Of a stretch of 64,000 bases of DNA, positions 859 to 62,534 are shown piece by piece. Position numbers and translations under genes: made by a program. The DNA is from an uncultured Verrucomicrobiae bacterium (GTDB taxonomy: Bacteria > Verrucomicrobiota > Verrucomicrobiia > Chthoniobacterales > UBA10450): assembly GCA_963726745.1 (NCBI GenBank), contig CAVSDR010000003.1, positions 192,001 to 256,000 on the forward strand. The letters are read 5' to 3'. Below the pieces are notes generated by a model that was given only the letters and a program-made list of their open reading frames with translations, did no database searches and had not been told where the DNA came from. Numbering within the stretch: position 1 is the first letter of the stretch; each line of letters starts with the position of its first letter.

Positions 859-1188
859 TTAGGCGAGCGCCTCGATCCGGCCTAACAAGTCCTTCTTGCT
901 GGTCATGCCGGTGATCTGATCCATCACCTGGCCATTCTTAAAGAAGAGGAGCGTGGGAATGGCGCGCACGTTGAAACGCGCGGAGAGGCCTTGGTTATGG
1001 TCGATGTTCACCTTGGCCACCTTGATCGTGCCGGCTTTTTCCTTCGCGATCTCGTCCAGCACCGGGGCGATCATTTTGCACGGGCCGCACCATTCGGCCC
1101 AGAAGTCCACCAGCACGGGCGTGTCGCTCTTGGTTACCTGGTCGTCAAAATTGCTCTCGTCGATCGTCAGCGTGGTCGAGTTATCCAT
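859..1188 (-). CDS. trxA: Thioredoxin
   Basis: VLVDFWAEWCGPCK active site; 109 aa from MDNSTTLTID. Confidence 0.95.
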   Translation of the reverse strand: MDNSTTLTIDESNFDDQVTKSDTPVLVDFWAEWCGPCKMIAPVLDEIAKEKAGTIKVAKVNIDHNQGLSARFNVRAIPTLLFFKNGQVMDQITGMTSKKDLLGRIEALA

Positions 1189-1190
1189 AG

Positions 1191-2129
1191 TCAGGAAACG
1201 TAGTTCCAAATCTGGATAAGCAAAGTGACCGTGGAAGCGCCGAGGATGAGCCAGCAAACGCCCAGCGGGACGGAATCGAGCCGATCGACGAAGCTCTCGT
1301 TAGGCGACAAGACGGGCGCTTTCGGCGAAGTCGTGAGCACGGGCGGCGCGTTGTGGATCGTGACCGCCGGCACCGTCTTCTGTAACGGCTGCGTCTTCGA
1401 CATTTTCACCGTCGGCTGCGGCGCGGCGCGCTCCGGCAGGATATTGATCCGCGCAGTTTCCTTCTTCGGGCCGGACTGTGTGCCGGAGCCGGGATAATTT
1501 GCCGGCGCGGCGGAAACGGAACCGGGCGCCGCGGCTGGCGGGGTGACGCGCGGGGGCGGCGGAAGCACTCGGGGGCGGGAAGGCATCGCGGGCACCGGAG
1601 CCGGCGCTGGCGTGGACGCCGCCGGCGGCGGAATCACTGGCGGCGCAGTCGGCGTGGGCACACTGGCGGGCGGCGGCGGGGGCGTGGCAGCCGCCGGCAC
1701 CGACTCGGAAGGAGGCGGAGTGACCGGCGAAGGGGGGCGGGGCGGGGGCGGCGGAACACTCGCGGCCGGAGGACGGGGAACCGCGGGAGGCGGAGGCGGC
1801 GGAGCCCCGGGCGGGCGGGCGGCAAGAGGCGCGCCCGAGGGCGGCGCTGGCGGCTTGAAGGAAGGGGGACGCACTGCGCCAGCGGCGGCGGGCGGCGGAA
1901 CCGGCGGACGGGCCATAGGCGGCGGCGCGACCGGCCGCGAGGGCGGCGGAGGCATGGGCGGCGCAGACCGCTTCGGGCCGCCGACGGTGCCGCTGGCTCC
2001 CGGAGGTTTAGGCGGCAAATTGATCTTTCGGGTGTCGCCCGAATCGTCTCCGGCAGCCCCTTTCTGGGGCAGGCGCGGCGGAAGAGTGATGCGAACAGTT
2101 TCTTTTTTCGGCTCGTTCAGATCACTCAT
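1191..2129 (-). CDS. Proline-rich, probably disordered protein with a C-terminal transmembrane anchor
   Basis: Very Pro/Ala-rich core, repeated KKETxRI motif, hydrophobic C-terminus VCWLILGASTVTLLIQIW. Confidence 0.75.
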   Translation of the reverse strand: MSDLNEPKKETVRITLPPRLPQKGAAGDDSGDTRKINLPPKPPGASGTVGGPKRSAPPMPPPPSRPVAPPPMARPPVPPPAAAGAVRPPSFKPPAPPSGAPLAARPPGAPPPPPPAVPRPPAASVPPPPPRPPSPVTPPPSESVPAAATPPPPPASVPTPTAPPVIPPPAASTPAPAPVPAMPSRPRVLPPPPRVTPPAAAPGSVSAAPANYPGSGTQSGPKKETARINILPERAAPQPTVKMSKTQPLQKTVPAVTIHNAPPVLTTSPKAPVLSPNESFVDRLDSVPLGVCWLILGASTVTLLIQIWNYVS

Positions 2130-2233: not shown

Positions 2234-3616
2234 TCACGCGAGCAAATCATAGCCGCGGCTGCCGGTGATTCGGCGAAAGACGAACTCGCCCACGGGCGCG
2301 GGCTGCGCCAGAACCACGGTGGCATCCACGTCCGGCGCATCGGCTTCGGTGCGGGCGATGTGCGGCTGCTCGACCAGCATTTTCAACTCCTGGCCCACGC
2401 GCGCGGCGGCGAGCTCACGAGCGATCCGCTGTTGCGCGAGCATTGCGCGCCGGAAGCGGGCGTTCTTCGTTCGCGCCGGCACCTGGTCAGGCATCTTGGC
2501 CGCGCGCGAGCCTTCCTCCTGCGAATATTTGAAGATCCCCAGCCGCTCGAAGCGCACCCGCTCGATGAACTCCAGGAGGGTCTCGAATTCCTCCTCCGTC
2601 TCCCCGGGAAAACCGACGATGAAAGTCGTCCGGAGCGCGATCCCGGGAAGGCCGGCGCGCAGCGCGACGATCAAATCCTCAATGTGCTGCTTGCCGGTCT
2701 CCCGGCGCATCCGGCCGAGCATGGCTTCGTGGATGTGCTGCAGTGGCATGTCGATGTAGCGCGCGACCTTGGGGCAGGCCGCGATCGTCTCGATGAGCTC
2801 GCCGCTCCAATGCGCCGGGTGCGTGTAAAGCAGGCGCACCCAAAACTCGCCCGGCACTTCCTGGATCTCGCGGAGCAAAGTCGAGAGCGTGGTCCCGCGG
2901 GCGGAATCCACCGGCTGGCGCGGCCCGGCCTTTTCGTTCCAGGAATCCATCCCGTAATAAGTCGTGTCCTGGCTGATGAGGTTGATCTCCTTGACCCCTT
3001 CCGCGACTAACGAGCGGACTTCCGCGAGGATCGATTCCGGTGGCCGGCTGCGATGCCGCCCGCGCATCTGCGGGATCACGCAGAAACTGCACGGATGGTT
3101 GCAACCCTCGGCGATCTTGAGGTAGGCGGTGTGCGGCGGGGTGAGGCGAAAGCGCGGCGTGTCGTAGGACGGGATGTAAGTCGGCCGCGCGGTCACGAGG
3201 TTGAGCGGATCCGCCTCGTCCGCCGCGGGCGACGCTGCGAGCACGCGTTCGGCGATCTCGCCGAGTTGCGTCACCTGGTCGAGCCCGATGAAGGCGTCCA
3301 CTTCCGGCAACTGCGCGCGCAGTTCGTTGGAAAATCGCTGCGACATGCAGCCGCTCACGATCAGGCGCTGGCCGGCGCGCTTCGCCAGGCCGCGCTGCTG
3401 GTGCGCGTCGAGGATCGCGTCGATCGATTCCTCTTTCGCGGAGTCAATGAAAGCGCAGGTGTTAATCACGAGCACGTCGGCGTCCTCGGCGCTGGCGGTG
3501 ATCTCCATCCCGCGCGCGCGCACGCTCCCGAGCATGATCTCGGCATCGACTAAATTTTTCGCGCAACCGAGCGAGATCATTCCGACCTTCGGCCGCGCGG
3601 ACAGAGTCTCGATCAT
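2234..3616 (-). CDS. rimO: Ribosomal protein S12 methylthiotransferase
   Basis: SLGCAKNLVDAE, NTCAFI, radical-SAM CNHPCSFC, C-terminal TRAM-like region. Confidence 0.95.
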   Translation of the reverse strand: MIETLSARPKVGMISLGCAKNLVDAEIMLGSVRARGMEITASAEDADVLVINTCAFIDSAKEESIDAILDAHQQRGLAKRAGQRLIVSGCMSQRFSNELRAQLPEVDAFIGLDQVTQLGEIAERVLAASPAADEADPLNLVTARPTYIPSYDTPRFRLTPPHTAYLKIAEGCNHPCSFCVIPQMRGRHRSRPPESILAEVRSLVAEGVKEINLISQDTTYYGMDSWNEKAGPRQPVDSARGTTLSTLLREIQEVPGEFWVRLLYTHPAHWSGELIETIAACPKVARYIDMPLQHIHEAMLGRMRRETGKQHIEDLIVALRAGLPGIALRTTFIVGFPGETEEEFETLLEFIERVRFERLGIFKYSQEEGSRAAKMPDQVPARTKNARFRRAMLAQQRIARELAAARVGQELKMLVEQPHIARTEADAPDVDATVVLAQPAPVGEFVFRRITGSRGYDLLA

Positions 3617-4666: not shown

Positions 4667-7132
4667 TTAAACCGCCGCGTCGAGGTCGACGAGAATCTCG
4701 CGCGGCTTCGCGCCTTCGCCGGGCCCCAAAATGCCGCGCTGCTCCAGAATGTCAACGATCCGGGCCGCGCGCGTATAGCCCAGCCGCAAGCGGCGTTGCA
4801 GCAGCGAAGTAGAGGCGCGTTTCTCCTGACGGATAATTTCGAGACATTTCTCGACCAGCTCCTCGTCTTCTTCGGTCACGTCCTCGCCTTCTTCGCCCGA
4901 CATCCCGCCGGCTAATTTCTCGCTGATCGCGAGGTCGTAGGCTGGCGGGCTCTGCGCGCCGACAAACTCGACCAGCCGCTTGATCTCGTCGTCGGTCACA
5001 AGCACGCCCTGCGCGCGGATCAGGCGCGAAGTGCTCGGCGGGAGATAGAGCATGTCGCCCTGGCCTAACAAGCGGTCGGCGCCGTTCTCGTCCAGGATCA
5101 CGCGGCTGTCGATCTTGCTCGCAACCTGGAAGGCGATGCGGCTGGGAATATTCGCCTTGATCACGCCGGTGATGACATCCGCGCGCGGCGTTTGCGTGGC
5201 CACGATCAAGTGAATTCCGGCGGCGCGCGCCATCTGCGTGATCCGCGCGATCGCGCTTTCCACATCGGCCGGCGCGGTCTGCATGAGGTCGGCTAATTCG
5301 TCAATGATCACGACGATATACGGCAGCTTCTCCGGGATGATTGGCTCGTCGTCGCGCGGGACGACGATGTTCAGCTTCTGGGTGTATTCCTCGACCGAGC
5401 CCATTGGCGGCTTTTCCTCGAGCGGCAATTGTTCGCCCTTCGCTTCGGCTTCTTCGTCGAGTTCCCGCTGCGTTTTCTTCTTCGGCCGGCCGTTGAAGCT
5501 GGTGATATTGCGCACGCCGGTCTTGGCGAAAATCTTGTAGCGATTCTCCATTTCCAAAATCACGTGGCGCAGCGCGAGCAGCACTTTCTTCGGATCGGTC
5601 ACCACCGGGATGATGAGATGCGGCAGCTCGTTGTAGACCTGCATCTCGACCACCTTCGGATCGATCATGATGAAGCGGAGCTCATCCGGGGTGAAGCGGT
5701 AGAGCATCGAGGCGATGAGCGCGTTGATACAGACGCTCTTGCCGCTGCCGGTGGTCCCGGCGACGAGCAAATGCGGCATCTGCGCGAGGTCGGCGATGAT
5801 GGTTTTGCCGTAAACATCCTTGCCCAAAGCGATGGGTAATTTCTGCTTCGCGTCCGTCCAATCAGGTGACTGCATCAGCTCGCGCAGCGTCACCTTGACC
5901 TTGCGGCTATTCGCCAGCTCGATGCCGACGGTGTCCTTGCCGGGAATGGGCGCGAGGATGTTGATTCGCTCCGCGCGCGTGGCCCGGGCGAGGTCGCGCT
6001 CGAGGCTCACGATCTTGTCCACGCGCACGCCTTTGGCCGGATAAACTTCGTAGCGGGTGATCGTGGGGCCGCGGGTGATATCGCCCGGCGCGACCGAGAT
6101 GCCGAACTGCAGGAGCGTGTCGATCAAGGTCGCCTGGATGCGCTCGAGCTCCGCGGGATCCGCGGCCACGCGGCCCTCGAGATCGTGCTCGTCGAGCAGG
6201 TCGAGGCCAGGAAGTTCGTAGTTTTCGAGATCGATTTTGGCACTCGTTAGACCATCGAGGCTTTTGTTGCCGGATTTGTCTTTGCCGCGGAGTTCTGCCA
6301 ACGACGGCTTCTTTTTCGCAGCCGGCAATTCCGTCGGCAGCGCGGTGGTATCGACCACTTTTGGCTTCGGACGATTCGCCAATTCCTCCGAAACAGACAG
6401 CGCGCTCGCCGGCTCCGGGACGGGCGCGCCTTTCTTCTTCAGCTGCCGCTCGATCGAGCGCTGCTGCTTGGCAAGCTCGCGCTGGCTGATTTCCAATTGC
6501 CCCTTGAGGTCGGTGCGCTGAAGGCTGCGCTTCAGGCGCCAATTGCGGTAGTCCGCCACGCTCCGGCGCATCCCGGCGACGCCTTCGCGCACCAGGTGAA
6601 TCGGCCGCAGGCCGGTCATCATGATCAAGCTCGTGAGGTAGAGTCCGCTCAGGAGAAGGAGCGAGCCGACCTGCCCCATGAGCAGCAGGAAGATGTGCCG
6701 CCCGAAATAGTAGCCGACCCAACCGCCCGGACCCTGGATATTAAAAAGCGTCCGCCAATCGCTCAGGAAATGCGTTTGCAGATGCAGCAGGCACGCGCCC
6801 GTGCCGACGAAAAGCGCGATCCAGCCGGCGCGCTTGCCGACGTGCAGCTGCGCGTAGAAGAGCTTGGCCGCGCCGAAGCCGAGGAGCGCCACCGCCAGCA
6901 GGTACGAAGCGCCGCCGATCATGAAGTAGGAAAAGCCGGCCACGATCGCGCCCAGCGGCCCGATGAAATTCTGCGCCGGCGAATTCGGCGAGGAAACTTT
7001 GCTGAACCAGACCCAGGCGGGTAAATCGCGGGGCGAATAGGAGATCAACGCCAGGAAAAGCAGCGTCCCGACGAAGAGGAGAATGAGCGCGAAGACTTCA
7101 TCCCAGGCATTGTTTTTCGCTGTGCGGGCCAC
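4667..7132 (-). CDS. ftsK: DNA translocase FtsK/SpoIIIE
   Basis: N-terminal TM domain, Walker A GTTGSGKS, IDELADLM, ATQTP, gamma domain SLLQRRLRLGYTRAARI; start GTG 7132 (or TTG 7141). Confidence 0.95.
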   Translation of the reverse strand: MARTAKNNAWDEVFALILLFVGTLLFLALISYSPRDLPAWVWFSKVSSPNSPAQNFIGPLGAIVAGFSYFMIGGASYLLAVALLGFGAAKLFYAQLHVGKRAGWIALFVGTGACLLHLQTHFLSDWRTLFNIQGPGGWVGYYFGRHIFLLLMGQVGSLLLLSGLYLTSLIMMTGLRPIHLVREGVAGMRRSVADYRNWRLKRSLQRTDLKGQLEISQRELAKQQRSIERQLKKKGAPVPEPASALSVSEELANRPKPKVVDTTALPTELPAAKKKPSLAELRGKDKSGNKSLDGLTSAKIDLENYELPGLDLLDEHDLEGRVAADPAELERIQATLIDTLLQFGISVAPGDITRGPTITRYEVYPAKGVRVDKIVSLERDLARATRAERINILAPIPGKDTVGIELANSRKVKVTLRELMQSPDWTDAKQKLPIALGKDVYGKTIIADLAQMPHLLVAGTTGSGKSVCINALIASMLYRFTPDELRFIMIDPKVVEMQVYNELPHLIIPVVTDPKKVLLALRHVILEMENRYKIFAKTGVRNITSFNGRPKKKTQRELDEEAEAKGEQLPLEEKPPMGSVEEYTQKLNIVVPRDDEPIIPEKLPYIVVIIDELADLMQTAPADVESAIARITQMARAAGIHLIVATQTPRADVITGVIKANIPSRIAFQVASKIDSRVILDENGADRLLGQGDMLYLPPSTSRLIRAQGVLVTDDEIKRLVEFVGAQSPPAYDLAISEKLAGGMSGEEGEDVTEEDEELVEKCLEIIRQEKRASTSLLQRRLRLGYTRAARIVDILEQRGILGPGEGAKPREILVDLDAAV

Positions 7133-7535: not shown

Positions 7536-8960
7536 ATGGCCAAGCATCAATACGCGACCAAGCCGCCAAACTTGAGCACGATGCCTCCGGGCGTGCCCTA
7601 CATCATCGGGAACGAAGCCGCGGAGCGTTTCTCGTTCTACGGGATGCGCTCGATCCTGATCGTGTTCATGACGACCTACCTGGTCAACGTGACCGGGAAG
7701 CTCGCGCCGATGGGCGATGCCGAGGCCCGCGCCTGGTTCGCCACTTTCGTCTCCGCGGTTTATTTCCTGCCGATCCTGGGCGCCATCCTCGCCGAGGGCG
7801 TTCTCGGGAAATACCGGACGATCCTCTATCTCTCGATCGTCTACTGCCTGGGCCATCTCACGCTCGCCTTCATGGACACCGATTGGGGCATCGGCTTCGG
7901 CCAGGAAAAGGTGCTCGCGATTGGCCTGGGCCTGATCGCCTTTGGCTCCGGCGGAATCAAGCCCTGCGTCTCGGCGAACGTGGGCGACCAGTTCGGCGAG
8001 TCGAACAAGCATCTCCTCTCGAAGGTCTTTGGCTGGTTCTATTTTTCGATCAACGCCGGTTCCTTCCTTTCGACCATTTTCTGCCCGTTGATGCTGGCGA
8101 ATCCCGCTTGGGGCCCGCGCTGGGCCTTCGGCATTCCCGGGGTGGCCATGTTCATCGCTACGGTTTTCTTCTGGCTCGGCCGCAAGAAATTCGTTCACAT
8201 CCCGCCGGCTGGCTGGGGCTTTGTGAAGCAGATGTTCAGCAAGGAAGGCCTCGGCGCCCTTGGACGGTTGGTGATTGTCTACATCTTTGTCGCCATCTTC
8301 TGGTCGCTCTGGGACCAAAGCTCGGGCGGTTCCTGGACGCTGCAGGCGCGGAACATGGATTTGAATTTCTTCGGCCTGCAACTGCTCCCGGCCCAGGTGC
8401 AGACGGCCAACCCGATTCTCATCCTGCTGTTTATTCCGTTGATGAACTACCTGATCTATCCCGCGATCGAGAAGGTTTTCCCGCTCACGCCGCTGCGAAA
8501 GATCGGCATCGGCCTCTTCCTCACTGGGTTCAGCTTCGTCGTCATTGCTTTCATCCAAAGCATGATCGACGCGGGCCAGCAGCCGACCATCTGGTGGCAA
8601 TTCCTCGCCTACGTCATCCTGACTGCGGGCGAGACCATGGTCTCGATCACCGGCCTCGAGCTCTCCTATACTCAGGCGCCGAACAAGATGAAGAGCGCGG
8701 TCATGGCCGCGTGGCTTTTCTGCGTCTCGTTAGGCAACGCTTTCACCGCGGGAGTGAACTTTTTCATCTCCAATCCCGACGGCAGCTCGAAGATGACCGA
8801 CTTCCACTACTACCTCTTCTTTGCGGGCTTGATGATCGTGGCCTCGCTCATCTTTGCGGTGGTCGCGAAGTTCTATCGCTACCGGACTTACCTGCAATCG
8901 CAGGAAACGCCGGCTGAAGAAGCGACCGAGCCGCTCCTCGCTGGCGGGACCCCGACCTAA
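7536..8960 (+). CDS. POT/PTR family proton-dependent oligopeptide transporter
   Basis: NEAAERFSFYGM (ExxERFxYYG-like), GSGGIKPCVSANVGDQF, FYFSINAGS, many TM segments. Confidence 0.93.
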   Translation: MAKHQYATKPPNLSTMPPGVPYIIGNEAAERFSFYGMRSILIVFMTTYLVNVTGKLAPMGDAEARAWFATFVSAVYFLPILGAILAEGVLGKYRTILYLSIVYCLGHLTLAFMDTDWGIGFGQEKVLAIGLGLIAFGSGGIKPCVSANVGDQFGESNKHLLSKVFGWFYFSINAGSFLSTIFCPLMLANPAWGPRWAFGIPGVAMFIATVFFWLGRKKFVHIPPAGWGFVKQMFSKEGLGALGRLVIVYIFVAIFWSLWDQSSGGSWTLQARNMDLNFFGLQLLPAQVQTANPILILLFIPLMNYLIYPAIEKVFPLTPLRKIGIGLFLTGFSFVVIAFIQSMIDAGQQPTIWWQFLAYVILTAGETMVSITGLELSYTQAPNKMKSAVMAAWLFCVSLGNAFTAGVNFFISNPDGSSKMTDFHYYLFFAGLMIVASLIFAVVAKFYRYRTYLQSQETPAEEATEPLLAGGTPT

Positions 8961-9862
8961 AGTTTCGCCACCGCCGCAACCATCCGCGCGCGCATCTGCT
9001 CGTTAGGCAACGGGCCGGTGCCGGCAGTCATGTTGTCGGCTAAATGCCGCGGGTTCGAGGTCGCCGGGATCGCGCAGGTGACCGCCGGGTGCGCCACGAT
9101 CCACTTGAGGAAGAATTGCGCCCACGACTTGCAGCCAAATTCCGCCGCCCACTCCGGCAACGGCTGTGCCCGCACTCGTGGAAATAAGCCGCCGCCGCCG
9201 AAGGGCCGGTTAATGATCACCGCCACGCCACGCTCCTGCGCCAGTGGGAGGACGCGCTCCTCGGCTTCGCGTTCCATGAGCGAGTAATTAATCTGCACGA
9301 AGTCGATCGGCTCGTTCGCGAGCACGCGCGCGACTTCCGCGTGGCTCCCCGCGGTGTAATGCGTGATCCCGAGGTAGCGCAGCTTCCCCTCCTCTTTCCA
9401 CGCGCGCAGAGTCGGGAGGTGCGTCGGGAGATCGACTAAATTATGCACCTGCATCAGGTCGAGCCGTTTTGTCCGAAGCAGGTCCAACGAGCGCTGCATC
9501 GACTCGATCCCGGCTTCGCGGCCCGTGGTCCAAATCTTGGTCGCGAGAAAAAGCGGCAGCTCGAGCTTCGCCGCGAGCTCCCCCAGGACCGCTTCCGCGC
9601 GGCCATACATCGGCGAGCTGTCGACCAACTTGCCGCCTAATTTCACGAAGCTTCGCAACACTTCCTCGAGCGGCGCGCGTTCGGCGGCGGAAGCGCCCAC
9701 GTCAAACGTCTGCCACGTTCCCAAGCCGATAACCGGCAACTTCTCGCCCGATGAAGGGATGGAGCGCTCGAGCATGGCGACACTTTCCGCGCGCCCCGAC
9801 GGAAGGAGCAAGCCAGCAGCTCCACCGACGAGGATGCGCGTCGCCGCCCGCCGCGTGATCAT
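8957..9862 (-). CDS. Aldo/keto reductase with a twin-arginine-like N-terminus
   Basis: IGLGTW, DSSPMYG, LATK, DLMQVHN, GKLRYLGIT, QINYS motifs. Confidence 0.9.
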   Translation of the reverse strand: MITRRAATRILVGGAAGLLLPSGRAESVAMLERSIPSSGEKLPVIGLGTWQTFDVGASAAERAPLEEVLRSFVKLGGKLVDSSPMYGRAEAVLGELAAKLELPLFLATKIWTTGREAGIESMQRSLDLLRTKRLDLMQVHNLVDLPTHLPTLRAWKEEGKLRYLGITHYTAGSHAEVARVLANEPIDFVQINYSLMEREAEERVLPLAQERGVAVIINRPFGGGGLFPRVRAQPLPEWAAEFGCKSWAQFFLKWIVAHPAVTCAIPATSNPRHLADNMTAGTGPLPNEQMRARMVAAVAKL

Positions 9863-11151: not shown

Positions 11152-12487
11152 GCGAAGGGGTCAGCGAGCTGATGACCGGGGTGGTGACGCGCGCCCGTTT
11201 CGTGTTCATGAAATCCTCGAGCGCCTTGCCAAACTCGGGATACGACTCTTCCACGCATTGCGCATCCTGCACGATGGTCTCGCCATCGGCAAAAAGTCCT
11301 GCCACCGCGAAAGCCATGGCAATGCGGTGATCGCCGAAGCTGGCCACGCGCGCGCCGCGGAGCGAACCGCGCCCGTGGATTTCCAAGCCATCGTTTAACT
11401 CGATCACCTGTGCGCCCATCGCGCGAAGATTGTGCGCGATCGCCGCGATGCGGTCGGTTTCTTTCACACGCAATTCCTGTGCGTGCCGGATGGTGGTGGT
11501 GCCGCTGGCGAGCGCGCCGGCGACCGCGAGGATCGGGAGCTCGTCGATCACCTGTGGGATTTCTTTCCCCTGGATGACCGTGCCCTTGAGCGCGGCGCCG
11601 GTTACTTCCACGGTCCCGCGCGGTTCGATCTGGTCGACATCCTCGATCGCCTCACGCACCTGCGCGCCCATGCGCACGAGCACGCCGAGAAGGGCAGTGC
11701 GGGTGTCGTTCAAGCCCACATCCCTAACGAGTAGTCGGCCGCCCGGCTGGACCGCGGCCGCGACCAGCCAAAAAGCAGCCGACGAGATGTCGCCCGGGAT
11801 GGTGAAGTCGCGCGACTCCGGCGTTTGGTCGCCGAAGATGGTGATCCCGCCGTCTTCCTCCTTGACCGTGCGCACGAGAAAATAGTTCAGCATCAGCTCG
11901 GTGTGATTCCGGCTGGGCGAGGGCTCGGTCACGGTGGTTTTGCCCTTGGCAAAAAGCCCGGCGAGCAGGAGCGCGCTCTTGATTTGCGCGCTGGAGATGG
12001 GCGAAGCGTACTCGATCCCGCGCAGCTTCGAGCCGGTGATGCGCAAAGGCGCAGTGTCGTTAGGCCCCTCGGCGCTGAGGAGCGCGCCCATTTCTCGCAA
12101 CGGGGTAATGACGCGCTCCATCGGGCGGCGGCCGAGCGTGGCGCCACTGACCAGCCGGCTGTCAAACGGCTGGCCCGCCAGCAAGCCCGCGAGCAGGCGC
12201 ATGGTCGTGCCGGAGTTTCCGCAATCGATGTCGCCCGGCGGTGCGGTCAGGAGCCGACGTTTGCCGTGGACGATGAGCATGTCCGGCTCCGGTTGCTCGA
12301 TGCGAATCCCGAGCGCGCGCAAAGCTTGCACCGTGCGCAGGCAATCTTCGCTCGCGAGGAAACCGCGGAGCACGCAGACGCCATTGGAAAGCGCGGCGAT
12401 GATCACGGCCCGGTGCGAGATGCTTTTATCACCGGGGACGATGATCTCGGCGTCGATGCGCGGGGCTCGTTTTACGCGGAATTCCAT
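11135..12487 (-). CDS. aroA: 3-phosphoshikimate 1-carboxyvinyltransferase
   Basis: PGDKSISHRA, DCGNSGTTMR, SAQIKSA, ELRVKETDRI, GDHRIAM. Confidence 0.96.
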   Translation of the reverse strand: MEFRVKRAPRIDAEIIVPGDKSISHRAVIIAALSNGVCVLRGFLASEDCLRTVQALRALGIRIEQPEPDMLIVHGKRRLLTAPPGDIDCGNSGTTMRLLAGLLAGQPFDSRLVSGATLGRRPMERVITPLREMGALLSAEGPNDTAPLRITGSKLRGIEYASPISSAQIKSALLLAGLFAKGKTTVTEPSPSRNHTELMLNYFLVRTVKEEDGGITIFGDQTPESRDFTIPGDISSAAFWLVAAAVQPGGRLLVRDVGLNDTRTALLGVLVRMGAQVREAIEDVDQIEPRGTVEVTGAALKGTVIQGKEIPQVIDELPILAVAGALASGTTTIRHAQELRVKETDRIAAIAHNLRAMGAQVIELNDGLEIHGRGSLRGARVASFGDHRIAMAFAVAGLFADGETIVQDAQCVEESYPEFGKALEDFMNTKRARVTTPVISSLTPSRADDE

Positions 12488-12623
12488 GTGCCTATGAGTT
12501 CGTGCCGGCATCCGCCGAGGGCGGCACGATTATCGGAAATTCGCGCGCGGTGCCTAGCATCGGCAGAACGCCGGAGTTGTCCAGCGCGAGCACGCCGGAC
12601 GGTTCGACCCGCAGGACGACTCG

Positions 12624-13058
12624 TTAGGGAACGAGGAAGATTTTCCCGGTGTAGGGATCCTTCACTTCCGTGCCCGGAGCGTAGCCGCGCACGTCGGTCA
12701 TCTTGTCGGGTGAAAACGGGCTGCGGACAAAGCCGGGCTTCCCAGGAACCGGAATGGCGTAGGGATAATCACCCTTCGCCGTCGTCTGCGTGGCCGGCTG
12801 GCTTGGAGGATTATTTGACGGCGCCGAGACAGCTTCGGTCGTGGTGCTCTCGTGCAGCGCCGGCGCAGAGCCGGTCGTCGTGGTCGTGGTCGTTACGCCA
12901 TCTTCGGCGAACGGCTGGGGCTGCGCAGGATATTGCGTCTGCTGCGGGGTGGGATATTTCGCGACCGGGCGGCGAACATTCCGCCGGGGCGGCTCATCGA
13001 TTTCGCAGGAGGTGAGGGCAAAAGCCGCGAGCAGACCGATCGAGAGCGCAAGTTTCAT
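12624..13058 (-). CDS. Lipoprotein with a low-complexity linker and a C-terminal PVPGKPG...DPYT domain
   Basis: Lipobox LTSC; Thr-rich linker; C-terminus paralogous to 45206..45739. Confidence 0.75.
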   Translation of the reverse strand: MKLALSIGLLAAFALTSCEIDEPPRRNVRRPVAKYPTPQQTQYPAQPQPFAEDGVTTTTTTTGSAPALHESTTTEAVSAPSNNPPSQPATQTTAKGDYPYAIPVPGKPGFVRSPFSPDKMTDVRGYAPGTEVKDPYTGKIFLVP

Positions 13059-15296: not shown

Positions 15297-15313
15297 CGCC
15301 TAACGAGTGCTTC

Positions 15314-23394: not shown

Positions 23395-24094
23395 TCAAGT
23401 CTTCTCCAGCCAGATCGCCTGGCGCGCCCAGCGGAATTTCCCCGCGCCAAAACTTCCGCCAGCCGGCCTTCTCCGCGAGCGCGCGGAGCTCCGCAAAGCT
23501 AAACGCCCGCGCCGCGGAAACGCGGCCATCTTCCCGCGTCATCCGGTCGCGAAAGATCAGGGCCGTTAGCAAATAAACGCCCACGTGCGCGAGCCAGCCG
23601 CGCCGAAGATCCGTCACCAGGACAAAGTGCCGGCTAATTTCCCGACATCTTCGCAGGAGCGCGACCGCGTCCTCGTCGCTGAAGTGGTGCAGCGCGAGCG
23701 AGCAGATCACCAGGTCGAAGGAGCCCTTCGCGCCAAACGTCAGCACATCCGCCTGCTCGCAGGTGATCTCCGGATAATCGCCGCTTAAGGCCTGCGCGGT
23801 CGCGAGCGTTCGTGGCTGGAAATCGACCGCTACGATCTCGACCTCGGCTCCGACCTGGCGTGCAAAATCCGCCACCAGCCGCGGAATATCGGCCGAGCCT
23901 GTCGCCAGATCCGCCACCCGCCAGCGATCCCCCGGCCGCAGCCAGCGGCGGAGAAATTTCTCCACCATCCGGTGGCTGCCGAACCAGCGATTGAGCGCGC
24001 GCAGGCTCCGGAGCGCGGCCGCCAATTCCGCCGCGGAGGCGTCCGGCCGGTCCATCAATTCCGGCTCCCCGGAGGCAAACTCCCGCCGGCTCAT
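23395..24094 (-). CDS. Class I SAM-dependent methyltransferase; +1 frameshift near 23450 artificially fuses it to panC
   Basis: EPELMD, ADLATGSAD, FDLVICSLALHHF; removing one T from a T4 run restores ...FRWARQAIWLEKT* just before the panC ATG. Confidence 0.8.
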
Positions 24095-36207: not shown

Positions 36208-36210
36208 CGA

Positions 36211-43485: not shown

Positions 43486-43541
43486 AACAAAGTGCCGGCT
43501 AAATTTTCTCACGTTTCGGGCGGAAATCCATCGGAGGCTGC

Positions 43542-48625: not shown

Positions 48626-51600
48626 ATGAGTCCTCTGCAGGCGGAAACGGAGCAGCGCGGTCTGGAAATTTTCGAACTGGTCGACCGGCACCCGGAATCG
48701 ATCTTCACCAAGGCTGGCTTCTACCAGCGGATGATGGCGATCTCGATGAAGGACGAGGCCTTCAAGGTGCAGATGTTTCGCTTCGTCGACGTGCTCGCTT
48801 CGCTCCGCCGCTCGGACGATATCGTGCAGCATCTCGACGAGTATTTTACCGGGATGACCGAGGGCTTCGGCCCGCTGATCCAGCCAGGGATCAAGCTGGC
48901 GAAAATCTTCCCGTGGCTGACTGCGCCGATCCTGCGTTGGAACGTCTCGGGGATGGCGCGCCAGTTCATCAGCGGGCGCGATCCGCAGGATGCGATGAAG
49001 ACGCTGCGCAAGGCGCGCAAGCGGAACATCGGCTTCACCGTCGACTTGTTAGGCGAAGCGGTCGTGAGCGAGCAGGAAGCCGACGAATACGGCGAGCGTT
49101 GCCTGGCGTTGCTCGAGGGCCTGGCCGCGGAAACGCGCGGCTGGACCGATCCGCTGGGCCGCGACAGCGAGCTTTTCCCGGTAGTGAATGTGTCGGTTAA
49201 AATTTCCGCGCTCTACTCGCAGATGAACCCGGCCGACCCGGCGGACGCGATCGCGCACCTCGCGCCGAAGCTGCGGCCGATCATCCGCCGCGCCCGGGAG
49301 CTGGGCGCCTTCATCAATTTCGACATGGAGAGCTACGCGCATAAAAACAGCACGCTCGAGCTTTTCAAAACGCTCTTCACCGAGCCGGAGTTCCGCGATT
49401 GGCCGCATGCCGGCATCGTCATCCAGGCCTACCTGCGCGACGCCGAGCGCGACTTGCGCGACCTGATCCAGTGGGGCCGCCGGCGCGGCACGCGTTTCAC
49501 CGTGCGCCTGGTCAAAGGGGCCTATTGGGATTACGAGCGGATCAAGGCCGCACAGAACGGCTGGCGCGTGCCCGTGTGGCAGCAGAAGCCGGAGAGCGAC
49601 GCCAATTTCGAAACCTGCACGCGTGTCCTCCTGGAGAACGAAGACATCGTCACCGCGGCCTTCGGTTCGCATAACGTCCGCAGCATCGCGCACGCGCAGG
49701 CGCTGGCCGAGCAGATGGGAATCGCGAAGAGCCGCTTCGAGTTCCAGCTCCTTTATGGAATGGCGAATCCGATCAAGCGCGCGCTCGTCGAGATGGGTTA
49801 TCGCGTGCGTGAATATTGCCCCGTGGGCGAACTCCTGCCCGGGATGGCTTACCTCGTTAGGCGACTACTTGAGAACACTTCCAACGAAGGCTTCCTGAAG
49901 GCGAAATTTACCGACAACGCCTCCGCCGCGAAGCTCCTGCGCGATCCAGCATCACTCGTTAGCCAGCGCGTTCGTGAGGTCGATGAGGTCGAGCCAGATG
50001 GCTCGTTAGACTTCGGTTATGAGCGCAACGGCCAGTCGCGCGAGACGCCTCCGGGCGACAGCTACGAGAACGCGCCGCTGGTCAACTTCGTGCATGAGGA
50101 AGCGCAGGAGGAGATGCGTGCCGCCCTTGGCGCAGCGCGCAGCCGCTTCGGGAAGCAATACCCGATGGTGATCAACAACCAGCCGGTCAGCACCGGGAAG
50201 TGGATGCCGTCGGTGAACCCGAGCAACCCCACGGAAGTCGTCGGCTCCGTGGCCGAGGGCGGCATCGCGGAAGCGGAAGCGGCGGTCAAAGCCGCGCGCG
50301 ATGCTTTCGGGCACTGGTGCCGCGTGAGCGTGGAGCATCGCGCGCAGCTGCTCGAGCGCGTGGCCGAGATCATGGATCGCCGGCGTTTCGAGCTCTCCGC
50401 GGTGGAAGTCTATCGAAGTCGGCAAACCGTGGGCCGAAGCCGATGGCGACATCCGCGAGGCGATCGATTTCCTCCTCTTTTACGCGCAGCAAATGCGCAT
50501 CCTCGGCCGCCCGAAGCTGACCCAGCACATCCTCGGCGAGGAAAGTTACCAGCATCATTGGCCGCGCGGCGTCGCGCTGGTGATCGCGCCCTGGAATTTC
50601 CCGATCGCGATCCTCTGCGGGATGGTCTCGGCCGCGCTCGTGACCGGCAACACCGTGGTCATGAAACCGGCGGAACAGTCAGCGATATGTGGCGCGCTCC
50701 TGATGGAAATGTTCCAGGAAGCGGGCGTGCCCGCGGGCGTGCTGAATCTCCTCACGGGCGACGGCGCCGTCGTGGGCAAGCACCTGGTCGAGCACAAGGA
50801 CGTCGACCTGATTGCCTTCACCGGCTCGCGCGAAGTCGGCCTCAATATCTGGAAAGCCGCCGGCGTGACTTTGCCCGGCCAGCGCGAGCTCAAGAAGGTC
50901 ATCTGCGAGATGGGCGGGAAGAACGGGGTCATCGTCGACAGCGACGCCGACCTCGATGAGGCGATCGTGGACACGATCTACAGCGCTTTCGGTTACCAAG
51001 GGCAAAAATGCTCGGCCTGCTCGCGCTTGATCGTGCTCGAGGAAAACTACGACCGCGTGGTCAAGCGCCTGCTCGAAGCGGCCGCGAGCTTGCGCGTGGG
51101 CGACCCGCAAGAACCTGGAATGACAGTCGGCCCGGTGATCGACGAGGACGCTTACCGGCGGATTCTCCAGCGGATCGAAGAAGGCAAAACAGAAGCGACT
51201 CTGGCCTATCAAGCGCCGAAGATTCCTGGCAACGGCTACTTCATCCCGCCGACTATTTTCACCAATGTGTCGGCTAATTCACGCCTGGCGCAGGAGGAGA
51301 TTTTTGGGCCCGTCTTGAGCGTGATCAAAGTGCGCGATCTCGACGAAGCGATCGCAGTCGCGAACGGCACGCAATACGCCCTCACCGCTGGCTTCTTTAC
51401 GCGCAGCCCGGCGAACAGCGAGCGCGTGAAAGCGGAACTGGAAGCGGGCAACGTTTACATCAACCGCTCCTGCACCGGCGCGGTCGTGGGGCGGCATCCG
51501 TTTGGCGGCTTCAAGATGAGCGGCGGCGGGACCAAGGCCGGCAGCGCGGATTACCTGCTGCAATTCCTCGTCCCGCGCGTGGTCACGGAAAACATCATGC

Positions 51601-55007: not shown

Positions 55008-55271
55008 ATGGCTCATAAAAAAGGACAGGGCAGCGTTAAAAACGGCCGCGACAGCGTCAGCAAGCGGTTGGGCGTGAAGAAATTTGGCAGCGAAGTCGTG
55101 GTTGCCGGCAACATCATTATCCGGCAGCGCGGGACGAAGTTCCTCCCGGGCAAAAACGTCGGCCTGGGACGGGATTACACCATCTTCGCATTGGTCGACG
55201 GCCGGGTGAAGTTCGACCGTGCTGGTCGCCGGGTGAACGTCGAGCCGCAAGCTGCGGTCGCCGCTTCCTAA
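55008..55271 (+). CDS. rpmA: 50S ribosomal protein L27
   Basis: [22 protein letters not shown]...IIRQRGT. Confidence 0.97.
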
Positions 55272-55358
55272 CGAGCCTCTTTTCACAGTGAAGGCTCGCA
55301 GTCCGGCAGGAGCGGATTGCCGTGCGCGGGCCGTTTGTCGTATAAAACGGAGACGCGC

Positions 55359-56211: not shown

Positions 56212-57126
56212 ATGCGCGTCGTTTTCATCGGCACGGGCGAGATCGGCCTGCCGACGCTGCGCTGGCTCCTGGCTTCAACAGAGCACGAATTAGCCGGCGT
56301 AATCACGCAGCCGGACAAGCCGGTCGGCCGCGCACAGACGATCACTGCCCCGCCGATCAAGGCTGCGCTCTCCGGCCTCGCCATTCCCATCCTGCAGCCG
56401 GTGCGGATCAAGCGCGAGGAAGCCATCGCCGAGATCCGCGCGCTCGCACCGGAGGTGATCGTGGTCATGGCTTACGGCCAAATTCTGCCGCCGGCGTTGC
56501 TCGAGATTCCGCCGGTCGCCTGCCTGAATCTCCACGCCTCGCTCCTCCCGAAATACCGTGGCGCTGCGCCCATCCAGGCGGCGATCGTCGAAGGCGAAAG
56601 CGAGACCGGGATCACGGTGATGTATATGGATGCAGGGCTCGACACCGGCGACATCCTCCTCAAGACAATGCTCGCGATCGCGCCTGATGAAACCGGCGGC
56701 TCGCTGCACGATCGGCTCGCGGAGATCGCGCCCAATTCGCTGGCTAATGCCCTCAAGCTCCTCGCCGCCGGAAAGGCGCCGCGCACCCCGCAAGATTCCG
56801 CCGAGGCGACCTATGCGCCCAAGCTCGAGCGCGAGCATGGCCGGATCGATTGGTCGCAATCCGCCGCTGCGATCGAGCGGAAAATCCGCGCCTACGATCC
56901 CTGGCCGGGGAGCTACGCGCTCCTGCGGACGGAGTCCGGCCGCGAAAGCAAGCTCAAGGTCTTCCGCGCGGAGATCCTGCCGGCTAACGAGTCGTCGCCC
57001 GGCGAACTCATCTTCGCGGCCGCCGACGGCGCGCTCCGTTTCCTCGAGGTGCAACCGGAAGGGAAAAAGCGGATGTCCGCGGCCGATTTCCTCCGCGGCC
57101 GGCCGCAGATCTTGCTGGCAGTTTAG
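56212..57126 (+). CDS. fmt: Methionyl-tRNA formyltransferase
   Basis: [42 protein letters not shown]. Confidence 0.95.
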
Positions 57127-57176
57127 CCGGCAACCTTTCGCTTCCCAAGCGCGCGACCTTGTTTGATCTTCCGGCC

Positions 57177-59693: not shown

Positions 59694-59765
59694 TGCGGTA
59701 GCCACGGCGGGAATAAACGCGCCGCGCCGGAAGGCGTCAACCTGCGAGGCGCGCCGCGCCTGCGC

Positions 59766-62534
59766 CTAACGAGCGAAATTCCCGGTCCGCTGGCGCACGT
59801 TCAGGACGTCGCCGGCGTTAATCACGCCGTCGCCGTTAATGTCGGCCCGGAAAGTCTGCGCGCTCGCCGCTTCGCCCGACCACTGGCGGCTGCGGAGAGT
59901 GTCGCCGGCGTTGACCACGCCATCGCCGGTGACGTCACCGACGAGGATCACCACCTGCAGGAAGACGTCGTCGGTACACCGGCCGTCGTTCACGCCATGC
60001 AGGACGAGCTGCAGGCGTTGTTGGTCGGCCACGCCGGAAAGGCCGATCACGAGGGTGTCGCTGCCGCTTCCGGTCTGCGTCCGAATTTGTCCGTTGCTAC
60101 CCTCGAGCGTGGTGCCGCTGTAGCTGACCGGCGCGGGGAAGCGCACTATGAGATCGTAGTCTCCCGCGCTCCCGCCGTTCCGCGGCTCCACCCCCGGCAC
60201 ACCCCCGAGCGGCAAGGCGACCGAGAAAATGCCGGCTGCGCCGTGATTCCGCTGGGAAAGAAACTGGCTGGGCACGATTTGGCGGAGACGCGCAGCGCCG
60301 AGGCGCGATTGCCCGTCGATGCGGGTAAAGAGACCGCCCAGCCAGATGCTCCCGTCGTTAGCCGGCAAGATCACATGCACCGTGCTGTTGGCGGTGACCT
60401 GGAATGTCGGATCAACCGTGCCATCGTTCTGCAGACGGGCGAGGCGTTGCCGCGGCACTCCGCCGATGCTGGTGAACTCGCCGCCCACGAGAATTCGCCC
60501 GTCGGCCTGCAACGCCAGCGCTTCGATGAAATCATTCACCGGCACCGCGAAGCCGTCGGCTGTTCCATCGGGATTCACGCGCAGGAGCGAGCCGAACCTC
60601 CCGCCGAAAATCACTTTTCCATCCGGCTGCACCTCGAGTTCCGAGACGCCGTTCGACGGCGTGACCGGCCGGAAGCTGGGGTCCGGCAGGCCGCTCGCAC
60701 TGACGCGCGCGAGGTAGTGATAAGAGGCGTCACCGTTGACGTTGGTAAAGTCGCCGCCGAGCACCACCTGACCATCGGGCTGCAGGGCGATGTCGTTCAC
60801 GAAGTAGACCCCACCGCGTGCGGCCACGATCTGGAAAGTGGAATCGAGCTGCCCATCCGGCAGCAGGCGCACCAACCCGGAAAGCACCGGTGAAGTCGCA
60901 CTGCCGGTGATCAATTTCCCGGCCACCAGGATGCGACCGTCCGGTTGCAACAGAATCTTGCGAATGACCGTGCGTTGCTGAATCGAGGAAGAGAAAGAAA
61001 CAAACGGCGACATGAAGGTGAAGTCGACCGTGCCGTCAGGATGCAACCGTTGCAGGAGGATGCTTGCACCCCCGTTGGCCGCGAGAACTTTTCCATCGCC
61101 CTGCACGGCCAGGCTGTAGACCGGGCCAAGATTCCGGCGCGGGTCAAAGGTCGGGTCGAGCGCGCCGCTACCGGAATAACGCGCGGCTCCCCGGCGAGCC
61201 GCCTGCTCAGCGTAGAAAAAATCGCCGCCGAGCACAACCTTCCCGTCTGGCTGAAGCGCGATGTCCTCCACAATGCCCTGGCGCGTGACGTTGAAGGTGC
61301 CACGCACGCTTTCGTCGATCGTCCCATCGGTGCGCACGAGCGCGAGATTTTCGTAGAAGTTGGTCCCGTCGGGCAGATTGATCACCGAAAAGGATCCGCC
61401 AAGGACCGCGCTTTCATCGGGCAGCAGAGTCACCGCGAGCACCAGGCCGGCCAGCTGACGGTCGATGTTGAAGCTGGGATCGCGCGCGCCACTGTTCGTT
61501 AGGCGGACCACCCGAAACTGCGTCACGCTTCCGTCGTAAAGGTAGAAGTCGCCGCCGACGGTGATCCGCCCGGCGGCATCGAGCGCGAAGTCGTAGACCG
61601 TGCCGTTGAGGATCTCTCCGCCATGGAAAGCCGGGTCGATCGTTCCATCCGGCAGCAAGCGCGCGAGCGGCCCGACCAGGCGACCGGCGATCTGGGTGAA
61701 CGCCCCACCCAGCAGGATCTTGCCGTCCGGCTGCAAGACGAGCTCCTCGATTCCGAAATTTAGTTCCGCAAGGATGGCCTCGAGCGCGCCGTTAGCCGAA
61801 TAGCGGCGCAGCTGGGGCGGAGTGATGGTGCCCAGGCTGGTGCCGACGAGGATGCGACCATCTGGTTGCAGCGCGAGGGTGTCGCTCGACTCGGAGGCGT
61901 TCCCGGTGAAACTGAAATCCACGCTCCCATCCGGCTGCAGGCGCGCGAGATTTTTCGCGATGTAGGCGCTGCCGGTCGATGGATTGGTCGCGGAGAGCGT
62001 GAAGGTGCCCCCGACGATGATCTTGCCGTCTGTTTGCAGGACGATCCCGCCAACGCGGCCGTCAATCGTGGGCGACTGGTTCTGCAGGAAAGCGGGATCG
62101 CGCGAGCCGTCGGCATTCAAGCGCTCCAGCGCGACGACCTGGCCGGTCTCGTCGCGCCGATAACGGCCGCCGACGAGAATTTTGCCATCCGGTTGCACTT
62201 GAAGCGCACGGACCGTCCCGCCAGTGCTCAGGATCGAAACGCCCACTTCGCCGACGCTGATGTCGCCGGCGTCAAAGGAAGGATCGATGGTTTTGTCCGG
62301 GAGGAAACGCGCCACGCCGCTGCGCGCCAGTCCGCCGGCGGTGAGGAAATTTCCACCCGCGAGGATTTTTCCGTCGGTCTGCAAGGCGGTCACATAGACG
62401 GTCGCGTTGCCCGCGGTGCTCGAGGAAAACTGCCGCAGCGTCGGCTTGAATTCCGGGTCCACCTCCGTGGCCGGGAGCGGCCGGGAGAACAACGACAAGC
62501 CGAACAGGACGCAACCAAGCAACCGCCAATGCAT
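59766..62534 (-). CDS. Secreted delta-60 repeat (beta-propeller-like) protein with C-terminal dockerin-like domain
   Basis: More than ten LQPDGKILVGG / RLxxDGxxDxxF repeats; C-terminal GDVTGDGVVNAGD and DINGDGVINAGD. Confidence 0.88.
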   Translation of the reverse strand: MHWRLLGCVLFGLSLFSRPLPATEVDPEFKPTLRQFSSSTAGNATVYVTALQTDGKILAGGNFLTAGGLARSGVARFLPDKTIDPSFDAGDISVGEVGVSILSTGGTVRALQVQPDGKILVGGRYRRDETGQVVALERLNADGSRDPAFLQNQSPTIDGRVGGIVLQTDGKIIVGGTFTLSATNPSTGSAYIAKNLARLQPDGSVDFSFTGNASESSDTLALQPDGRILVGTSLGTITPPQLRRYSANGALEAILAELNFGIEELVLQPDGKILLGGAFTQIAGRLVGPLARLLPDGTIDPAFHGGEILNGTVYDFALDAAGRITVGGDFYLYDGSVTQFRVVRLTNSGARDPSFNIDRQLAGLVLAVTLLPDESAVLGGSFSVINLPDGTNFYENLALVRTDGTIDESVRGTFNVTRQGIVEDIALQPDGKVVLGGDFFYAEQAARRGAARYSGSGALDPTFDPRRNLGPVYSLAVQGDGKVLAANGGASILLQRLHPDGTVDFTFMSPFVSFSSSIQQRTVIRKILLQPDGRILVAGKLITGSATSPVLSGLVRLLPDGQLDSTFQIVAARGGVYFVNDIALQPDGQVVLGGDFTNVNGDASYHYLARVSASGLPDPSFRPVTPSNGVSELEVQPDGKVIFGGRFGSLLRVNPDGTADGFAVPVNDFIEALALQADGRILVGGEFTSIGGVPRQRLARLQNDGTVDPTFQVTANSTVHVILPANDGSIWLGGLFTRIDGQSRLGAARLRQIVPSQFLSQRNHGAAGIFSVALPLGGVPGVEPRNGGSAGDYDLIVRFPAPVSYSGTTLEGSNGQIRTQTGSGSDTLVIGLSGVADQQRLQLVLHGVNDGRCTDDVFLQVVILVGDVTGDGVVNAGDTLRSRQWSGEAASAQTFRADINGDGVINAGDVLNVRQRTGNFAR

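Follow-up and report, generated by a model that had tools for sequence, protein, structure and literature searches.

The stretch analysed here (the window) spans 64,000 nucleotides, positions 192001-256000 of contig C3, in the genome of an uncultured Verrucomicrobiae bacterium (G000; assembly of 3.41 Mb, seven contigs, 64% GC), and it is scattered with copies of one short DNA word. The word, W1, is the 10-mer GCCTAACGAG, with CTAACGAG as its 8-mer core. Pfam places copies in genes for a RimO-like radical-SAM protein, FtsK, EPSP synthase (aroA), methionyl-tRNA formyltransferase (fmt) and other ordinary genes, in agreement with the original prediction, made from the sequence alone, that sites lie inside rimO, ftsK, aroA and fmt.

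In the window we counted 29 cores (16 on the plus strand and 13 on the minus strand), where 100 dinucleotide-preserving shuffles averaged 0.63 and never exceeded 2, and 16 copies of the full 10-mer, where shuffles averaged 0.07. A G stood two bases upstream of the core in 26 of the 29 copies. One-mismatch variants were CTAACAAG (at 882, 5065, 35133, and 49045), CTAACGAC (at 12056, 16423, 35300, 40945, 47337, and 60354), and CTAACGAA (at 29658, 36204, and 61495). This recount matches every coordinate that the original prediction had listed for the exact 8-mers, its 16 10-mers and its 26 upstream Gs; its hand count was complete, and its one-mismatch variants all lie within 1 nt of where it put them. 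The enrichment it reported was real but too low at 20-fold and 100-fold: measured against the shuffles, the 8-mer is enriched about 46-fold and the 10-mer about 230-fold. The W1 copies and variants in the window are the following, with G024, G013, G017, and G005 being genomes of relatives:

1296..1305, minus strand: W1 GCCTAACGAG
3005..3014, plus strand: W1 variant GACTAACGAG, in the RimO-like gene
6243..6252, minus strand: W1 variant GTCTAACGAG, in ftsK
8726..8735, minus strand: W1 GCCTAACGAG, in a POT transporter gene, read TCG-TTA-GGC (S-L-G)
8999..9008, minus strand: W1 GCCTAACGAG, read CCT-AAC-GAG (P-N-E), present also in G024
11722..11731, plus strand: W1 variant CCCTAACGAG, in aroA, read CTC-GTT-AGG (L-V-R); CTC-GTG-CGC in low-density relatives
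12056..12065, minus strand: W1 variant GCCTAACGAC, in aroA; core at the same position in 25 of 76 aligned relatives
12620..12629, minus strand: W1 variant CCCTAACGAG
15298..15307, plus strand: W1 GCCTAACGAG
16421..16430, plus strand: W1 variant GCCTAACGAC, read TCG-TTA-GGC; synonymous TCG-CTC-GGC or TCG-CTC-GGG in low-density relatives
24101..24110, plus strand: W1 GCCTAACGAG
24863..24872, plus strand: W1 GCCTAACGAG, common to G024 and G013
27086..27095, plus strand: W1 variant GGCTAACGAG
27437..27446, minus strand: W1 GCCTAACGAG, common to G024; synonymous TCC-CTC-GGG or TCG-CTG-GGC in low-density relatives
28744..28753, plus strand: W1 GCCTAACGAG
29656..29665, plus strand: W1 variant GCCTAACGAA
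30078..30087, minus strand: W1 GCCTAACGAG
33401..33410, plus strand: W1 GCCTAACGAG
34607..34616, plus strand: W1 GCCTAACGAG, core common to G024, G013, G017, and G005
35298..35307, plus strand: W1 variant GCCTAACGAC
36202..36211, plus strand: W1 variant GACTAACGAA
36438..36447, minus strand: W1 variant GTCTAACGAG
37182..37191, minus strand: W1 GCCTAACGAG
39234..39243, plus strand: W1 variant GGCTAACGAG
39264..39273, plus strand: W1 variant GGCTAACGAG
40945..40954, minus strand: W1 variant GCCTAACGAC
41440..41449, plus strand: W1 GCCTAACGAG
47127..47136, minus strand: W1 variant GACTAACGAG
47335..47344, plus strand: W1 variant GACTAACGAC
47680..47689, plus strand: W1 GCCTAACGAG, common to G013
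49853..49862, minus strand: W1 GCCTAACGAG
49955..49964, minus strand: W1 variant GGCTAACGAG
50002..50011, minus strand: W1 variant GTCTAACGAG
55266..55275, plus strand: W1 variant TCCTAACGAG
56982..56991, plus strand: W1 variant GGCTAACGAG, in fmt
59764..59773, plus strand: W1 GCCTAACGAG
60354..60363, minus strand: W1 variant GGCTAACGAC
61495..61504, minus strand: W1 variant GCCTAACGAA

At the genome level, W1 was the commonest 10-mer of G000, with 820 copies against 4.4-7.7 expected under Markov models of orders 0-3; the next was GCGCGCGCGC, with 634. The core occurred 1293 times, at 0.24-0.51 copies/kb. On average, the 10-mer recurred every 4.2 kb and the core 8-mer every 2.2 kb, and the density of core sites (0.35-0.63/kb across the seven contigs) showed no positional concentration. 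The word is not confined to the contig of the window, as all seven contigs and dozens of independent assemblies of relatives carry it.

W1 has a strict core and softer edges. Within the core C-T-A-A-C-G-A, single-base variants had 0-28 copies each, except CTAACAAG with 93; at the last position of the word, 226 copies had A and 237 had C instead of G. The sequence logo displayed a G and a C before CTAACGAG and no long conserved flank. After the word, A or T was preferred (and G avoided) at +1, and A or T again at +4. This preference was seen in all four occupied reading frames and also outside called genes, a class that is an upper bound for intergenic DNA because our gene caller was crude (open reading frames of at least 80 amino acids with third-position GC > 0.70; 80% of G000 covered). 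Its independence of frame shows recognition at the DNA level, and the recognised unit is thus a footprint of about 14 nt, GCCTAACGAG-W-N-N-W. The word is asymmetric, its reverse complement being CTCGTTAGGC, and both orientations were used about equally (681 forward and 631 reverse as a 9-mer).

Two readings of these data were rejected. The first takes W1 for a repetitive extragenic palindrome, a miniature inverted-repeat transposable element or another dispersed repeat; it was ruled out because the information falls to background within 4 nt of the word and 616 of the 820 copies lie within called genes. The second concerns the observed-to-expected ratios by mismatch class, which were 188-fold for exact copies, 6-fold for one mismatch, 0.68 for two, and 0.76 for three. 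The last two values could be taken as a draining of near-cognate sequences, but W1 copies themselves inflate the trinucleotide counts behind the expectation.

The original prediction had claimed that protein coding does not account for the word, and this was borne out. Called genes held 624 copies, against 8.8 ± 2.2 (maximum 14) in 20 synonymous-codon shuffles made inside each gene, a null that preserves the proteins and the codon usage of each gene. The 616 copies inside called genes fell in four reading frames: 325 as xxC-TCG-TTA-GGC (antisense), 129 as xxG-CCT-AAC-GAG, 101 as xGC-CTA-ACG-AGx, and 61 as CTC-GTT-AGG-C. The two stop-generating frames held none. As had also been claimed, different frames and orientations are occupied, and the use of both gene orientations (230 sense and 386 antisense) ruled out an RNA-level motif. 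A sizeable share of two codons sits inside W1 (427 of 2799 TTA and 219 of 1426 CTA, 15% in each case), with 427 of the 711 S-L-G tripeptides spelled TCGTTAGGC and 147 of the 232 P-N-E tripeptides spelled CCTAACGAG. The protein contexts that permit W1 are close to saturated.

Orthologues were compared through whole-locus alignments; BLAST of ±75 nt around each site had given patchy alignments. The window was aligned to five genus members, each about 75-76% identical, and larger alignments covered 224 kb against G024 and 164 kb against G013. At 16421, G000 reads TCG-TTA-GGC where low-density relatives read TCG-CTC-GGC or TCG-CTC-GGG, and at 11722 it reads CTC-GTT-AGG where they read CTC-GTG-CGC. 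Both changes are synonymous and lead from a common to a rare codon (e.g., CTC to TTA), which is the convergence on the word that had been suggested as a check. Elsewhere, W1 came at the price of conservative amino-acid substitutions, for example P-N-E in place of P-D-E or S-L-G in place of A-L-G.

Once written, the sites were retained. Of the aligned 10-mer sites of G000, 26 of 39 were identical in G024 (vs. 0.099 of all aligned 10-mers) and 18 of 43 in G013 (vs. 0.110); at a nucleotide divergence of about 25%, W1 sites survived four to seven times as often as control 10-mers. In low-density genomes, 8 of 11 core sites of G002 and 7 of 13 of G005 were common to G000, against 0.157 and 0.156 for control 8-mers. 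Thus, W1 sites are old and actively kept, and the site at 34607, whose core is common to four relatives, is therefore an old one. In the other direction, G000 kept 26 of 74 W1 sites of G024. An alignment of 76 aroA genes displayed the core at one position in 25 genomes and at a second position in 7 genomes from two distant clades of a single-gene, midpoint-rooted tree; the second is either a parallel gain or a very long retention. A sequence-specific process acting on DNA, and not protein coding, maintains W1.

We found no polarity of W1 relative to replication when following up the proposed check of strand bias. Its orientation did not correlate with GC skew in 50-kb bins of G000, and on contig C6, where the cumulative GC skew falls monotonically over 1.03 Mb, forward minus reverse copies stayed within ±12 of 408 sites. 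A polar word like Chi or the FtsK-orienting polar sequences (KOPS) is ruled out by this lack of polarity.

Close pairs of W1 were too few. There were 10 gaps of at most 60 bp against 40.3 ± 6.4 at random placement, 27 of at most 120 bp against 79.3, and 76 of at most 250 bp against 160.2 ± 11.0. Such self-avoidance is expected if one tag per DNA fragment suffices, and is not expected from mutational bias.

The word was also depleted in atypical DNA. The longest stretch free of W1 (35 kb, GC 0.593) holds a surface-polysaccharide cluster with DegT aminotransferases, glycosyltransferases, Wzz, and an ABC transporter, and another contains WecG glycosyltransferases and an exosortase. Density rose from 0.40 per 10 kb in genome windows below 59% GC to 6.31 in those above 65% GC (Spearman 0.46), despite W1 itself being only 50% GC. 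These W1-poor deserts are probably foreign islands. The sole C5 DNA-methylase gene of G000 (C5:212477-213604) lies inside one desert, C5:204153-219285 (GC 0.619), and may be in acquired DNA.

To follow W1 across relatives, we compared its count in each genome with that of the reversed word. Genus and family tallies include genomes flagged as unpublished (G001, G008, G043, G047, G054, and G101), on which no conclusion hangs. W1 exceeded its control in each of the 24 other genus genomes searched, from 51 vs. 40 in G002 to 1549 vs. 57 in G024. A tree from 30,393 shared columns set the high-density group (G000,(G024,G013)) apart from G002, G005, and G017 with support 1.0. In the family sample (61 genomes, 36 genera), W1 was enriched in the majority of genera and reached at least three times its control in 41 genomes, counted by hand; high counts were found in G090 (1338), G059 and G086 (about 725), and G098 (714), and it was at or below control in G054, G064, G074, G080, and G096. 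Beyond the family, 16 genomes from 15 other families of the order held 0-14 copies, each below control. The original prediction had proposed profiling the word across the phylum; what emerged is a lineage-restricted word, with alternative words in other genera.

The only genome outside the family with more than 6 copies was G028, with 14 (C7:94047-95481, C13, and C21). They sit in clusters on one strand, roughly 0.4-0.9 kb apart, a pattern more like that of a repeated gene or domain than that of a word spread over the genome.

We also sought a close dialect of W1 in 400 kb each of the low-density genomes G002 and G005. None was found, and the W1 core was still the top enriched non-tandem word, at lower density. 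In the first 400 kb of contig C4 of G005, tandem hexamer-type repeats (GTCGGT and GTCGGA variants) dominated the k-mers, ACACCGACAC having 170 copies. In a small 124-kb sample of G080 no hyper-abundant word was found.

An unbiased k-mer screen of 288 kb of G074, where W1 is at background, retrieved a different word, W2 (AAGATCGACA), with 76 copies vs. 1.9 expected; its extended form is AAGATCGACA(A). W2 is short, stand-alone, and strand-balanced (135 vs. 139 for the GATCGAC core), contains GATC, and is unrelated to W1. It had at least 300 copies in 21 of the 61 family genomes (again a hand count), with maxima of 4653 in G067, a 2.9-Mb genome with one copy per 0.6 kb, and 4179 in G091; four genomes of the genus of G000 in that sample had only 22-40. 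Between genera, W1 and W2 were roughly complementary, with both abundant in some genomes, such as G067 with 491 W1 and 4653 W2. One W2 copy lies in the window:

5107-5116, minus strand: W2 AAGATCGACA

A third word, W3 (GYYGGCTAAW), was strand-balanced in G000, where 482 of its 958 copies were forward and 476 were reverse. It occupied several frames and was preceded, five to six bases upstream, by A-W; its extended form is (A-W-N3-)G-Y-Y-GGCTAA-W. Among 34 genus genomes it was enriched only in G000, G011 (394), and G015 (254). The other 31 were near or below control, except G009 (90 vs. 69), and in the family sample outside G000 it rose above control only in G047 (190 vs. 72). None of the aligned W3 sites of G000 was present in G024 (0 of 38) or G013 (0 of 33), where the aligned sequences differed by 1-7 substitutions. 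Therefore, W3 was written recently by point changes. Its self-avoidance was mild (45 gaps of at most 250 bp vs. 65.5 ± 7.4). The W3 copies in the window are:

4907..4916, plus strand: W3, in ftsK
5288..5297, plus strand: W3
9035..9044, plus strand: W3
23629..23638, plus strand: W3
36531..36540, minus strand: W3
40686..40695, plus strand: W3
42108..42117, plus strand: W3
43494..43503, plus strand: W3
47419..47428, plus strand: W3
51269..51278, plus strand: W3
56289..56298, minus strand: W3
56739..56748, plus strand: W3
57122..57131, minus strand: W3
63159..63168, plus strand: W3

W1 (GCCTAA...) and W3 (GGCTAA...), placed in register, differ at one of six letters, and among the position-2 variants of W1 the most frequent is GGCTAACGAG, with 166 copies. 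This hints that the readers of the two words may be related, and could be chance. G000 has 820 copies of W1 vs. 1404-1549 in G013, G079, and G024; the lower number is what one would expect if specificity had moved in part from W1 to W3, and gains in the sister lineage would explain it equally well.

Altogether, the process behind these words creates them by point substitution, keeps them for long, saturates permissive contexts, and ignores strand and frame. Close pairs are disfavoured, probably foreign DNA is left alone, and the target has been exchanged more than once inside the family. Biased DNA uptake followed by recombination is the only documented process with such a signature. Mutation and uptake bias are enough to accumulate such words by molecular drive, according to the available part of PMC1939737. 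We therefore propose, with moderate confidence, that W1 is a self tag of the lineage kept by biased DNA uptake, similar to the DNA uptake sequences (DUS) and uptake signal sequences (USS) of other bacteria; uptake as the biased step and the identity of the receptor are what we infer.

The original prediction had offered an uptake sequence, a HIP1-like word, or a nucleoid-organising signal, maintained by some sequence-specific system. Maintenance at the DNA level is supported by the codon null, the synonymous convergence, and the site retention. Among the candidates, the uptake pattern fits best because W1 lacks polarity, belongs to one lineage with alternative words, avoids itself at short range, and is depleted in atypical DNA; the HIP1-like form fails, as the word is not a palindrome.

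In the mechanism we envisage, W1 on double-stranded DNA would be bound at the cell surface by a receptor that is probably part of the type IV pilus and belongs to an unrecognised family. The fragment would then be pulled through the secretin to ComEC and on to DprA, which would load it for recombination. Mutations that create or repair W1 would be over-transmitted among relatives, and the word would climb until the places that proteins tolerate were saturated.

The machinery for this was found. ComEC and secretins were present in 26 of 26 genus genomes, and G000 encodes DprA. Of the 18 prepilin N-methyl matches listed for G000, 16 passed the cut-off. Ten matches were to T2SSE-family ATPases, and several of these were only partial, as is the case in PilT-like proteins. 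Uptake machinery is necessary rather than telling. In G005, adjacent frames hold the fragments of ComEC and of two secretin genes (C12:409293-409950, C12:561420-562077, and C4:1170920-1171373). Several genes of this few-contig assembly are split likewise, so we dropped the reading of lost competence; indels of long-read assembly are more likely than pseudogenes.

Several observations weigh against biased uptake. Competence parts were widespread in control genomes (6 to 13 of 14), so that their presence is weak evidence, and they do not track W1 density: G002, with 51 copies, has an intact ComEC. The ComEA-like helix-hairpin-helix match of G000 was weak (29.3 bits over 30 residues). The Pfam family ComP_DUS gave only sub-threshold N-terminal matches in G000 (21.9 vs. 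a cut-off of 27.3 bits) and exceeded the cut-off in only 1 of 26 genus genomes, and a search for the GspH/FimT domain gave no match. A pilus receptor, if any, would lie outside the recognised families. Two or three hyper-abundant words coexist in single genomes, and W3 lay within 120 bp of W1 133 times vs. 101.0 ± 9.9, with no mutual repulsion; we know of no DUS or USS genome with coexisting, non-repelling words. Opposite-strand pairs of W1 within 120 bp numbered only 14 (5 '+-' and 9 '-+') among 1514 core sites, a rarity that rules out use as terminators or inverted pairs. About half of DUS and USS copies lie in terminators, as given in the available part of 10.1101/2025.10.24.684340. Finally, the organisms of the family are known only as metagenome-assembled genomes, and a literature search on competence in Udaeobacter and Chthoniobacterales gave nothing relevant among the matches listed.

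Comparison with known systems places W1 closest to uptake words. The DUS of Neisseriaceae are 10-12 nt long, have the minor pilin ComP as receptor, and form dialects between genera. Like them, W1 is short, non-palindromic, and hyper-abundant, lies equally on both strands and in genes in several frames, has a strict core with softer edges, and is lineage-restricted, with other words in relatives and depletion in atypical DNA. It differs in having no ComP homologue over the Pfam cut-off in G000, almost no inverted pairs or terminator use, and alternative words that are unrelated rather than dialects of 1-3 nt. Moreover, two or three words can coexist in one genome here, and the phylum is Verrucomicrobiota and not Proteobacteria. 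The USS of Pasteurellaceae have a 9-nt core with AT-rich flanks. Their predicted receptor is ComN/PpdA (PMC12616744, available part). W1 resembles USS in its core with weak phased A/T preferences beside it, in lying mostly in coding DNA with a frame preference set by protein tolerance, in sites common to related species, and in two word types within one family; its flank signal is much shorter and the words are completely different.

Chi and KOPS words are strand-polarised with replication and modestly over-represented. W1 shares with them the octamer scale, a frequency of about one per few kb and, presumably, being read by a DNA machine, but it is non-polar and about 190-fold enriched. The cyanobacterial HIP1 (GCGATCGC) is likewise a hyper-abundant word at phylum or family level, inside genes and evenly spread; it is a palindrome recognised by methylases (PMC13756078, available part), whereas W1 is asymmetric.

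The first alternative is that W1 is the binding site of an intracellular DNA-binding protein (one that organises the nucleoid, marks self DNA for repair or recombination, or acts like Chi without polarity), with each site under natural selection. We consider this unlikely. Site conservation far above background would follow from it, but rare codons and amino-acid changes are paid at more than 1000 sites for what would be a tiny benefit each, and transmission drive would explain this more easily. The asymmetric footprint of about 14 nt suits a monomeric protein, and the absence from probably foreign islands is as for any self marker; unrelated words swapped between genera, and even within a genus, would be odd for a core chromosome-organising factor. 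W1 also lacks the replication polarity of Chi, KOPS, and other architecture-imparting words and any concentration along the seven contigs, although its short-range spacing could be what a regularly binding factor requires. HIP1 has also been called quasi-periodic (PMC13756078, available part).

A HIP1-like explanation, where W1 is the target of a DNA methyltransferase or of modification-linked repair and is enriched by biased repair or a function tied to methylation, seems clearly improbable. G000 does encode members of DNA methyltransferase families (three loci with N6_Mtase matches, an N6_N4_Mtase, and a C5 methylase), but nothing links them to the words, and we rejected the inventory as a discriminator. 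Modification specificities turn over fast between species, which would suit W1, W2, and W3, and W2 contains GATC; W1 itself is no palindrome, and typical methyltransferase sites are shorter than its footprint of about 14 nt. No single transition variant stands out, as very-short-patch-type repair would give, and such repair would be expected to drive one position only. A mutational or repair process also predicts Poisson spacing, not a deficit of close pairs. Two methylases do recognise HIP1, as stated in the available part of PMC13756078.

Very unlikely, in our view, is a transfer bias in another vehicle, with W1 serving to package DNA into gene-transfer agents or transducing phages, or as a nick or entry site of a conjugation-like system. 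Any biased transfer with homologous recombination would give the same population-genetic signature; yet W1 is as old as the family and would need an equally old, stably inherited vehicle. No such vehicle was identified, no search aimed at one having been made. To our knowledge, no packaging signal described so far recurs about 1000 times in a genome. A link of HIP1 to type IV secretion has been proposed (PMC13756078, available part). Least of all can we credit a function-free by-product of context-dependent mutational bias, given an enrichment that drops from 188-fold for exact copies to 6-fold with one mismatch and under 1 with two or three, retention four to seven times that of control 10-mers, the shortage of close pairs, and the same aroA position carrying W1 in two distant clades.

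A broader reading, put forward tentatively and with the balance tipped slightly against it, is that these Chthoniobacterales, a whole family of uncultured bacteria abundant in soil with Ca. Udaeobacter among the labels of its members, possess a heritable genome watermark with replaceable specificity. W1 would be as old as the family, W2 would have taken over in other genera, and W3 would have arisen within the genus, at about 960 sites by point substitution, the W1 density remaining about half that seen in the sister species.

Should the words prove to be read by a DNA-uptake receptor, uptake sequences would for the first time be known outside Proteobacteria, and for the first time with words that coexist and succeed each other, through a receptor family not yet known. 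Uptake-enhancing sequences are defined in the available part of 10.1101/2025.10.24.684340 as comprising the DUS (Neisseriaceae) and the USS (Pasteurellaceae) and, going by it together with PMC12616744 and PMC1939737, are documented only in these two families. A system with this signature would also mean that some of the commonest soil bacteria, never grown so far, often exchange DNA with a bias towards their own. The three words could serve as a handle to track lineages and gene flow in metagenomes and to spot foreign islands. Moreover, three natural states of specificity in close genomes could make the reader findable by co-evolution, and words of different age that coexist make word birth and decay directly open to study, unlike in the two classical families.

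The statement of the original prediction that it knew of no description of this word held in the literature searched. Full-text matches listed for the 8- and 10-mers and their complements were primers or unrelated uses, with no string in a title or abstract; those for 'DNA uptake sequence' with Verrucomicrobia looked incidental, judging by titles and the start of abstracts. PMC2843746 mentions neither W1 nor Verrucomicrobia.

Two minor observations concern other repeated or polar words in G000. FtsK (window 4667-7141, minus strand) has a gamma domain, which in other bacteria reads polar KOPS words. Since W1 and W3 are non-polar, a separate polar word may be present in G000. Finally, six perfect GTTGGC/GCCAAC hexamer tandem arrays of 102-234 bp are the source of the commonest 12-mers of the genome:

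C1:5127-5258, GTTGGC/GCCAAC array
C3:82903-83070, GTTGGC/GCCAAC array
C3:731719-731832, GTTGGC/GCCAAC array
C4:146754-146855, GTTGGC/GCCAAC array
C6:313696-313929, GTTGGC/GCCAAC array
C6:1027519-1027668, GTTGGC/GCCAAC array

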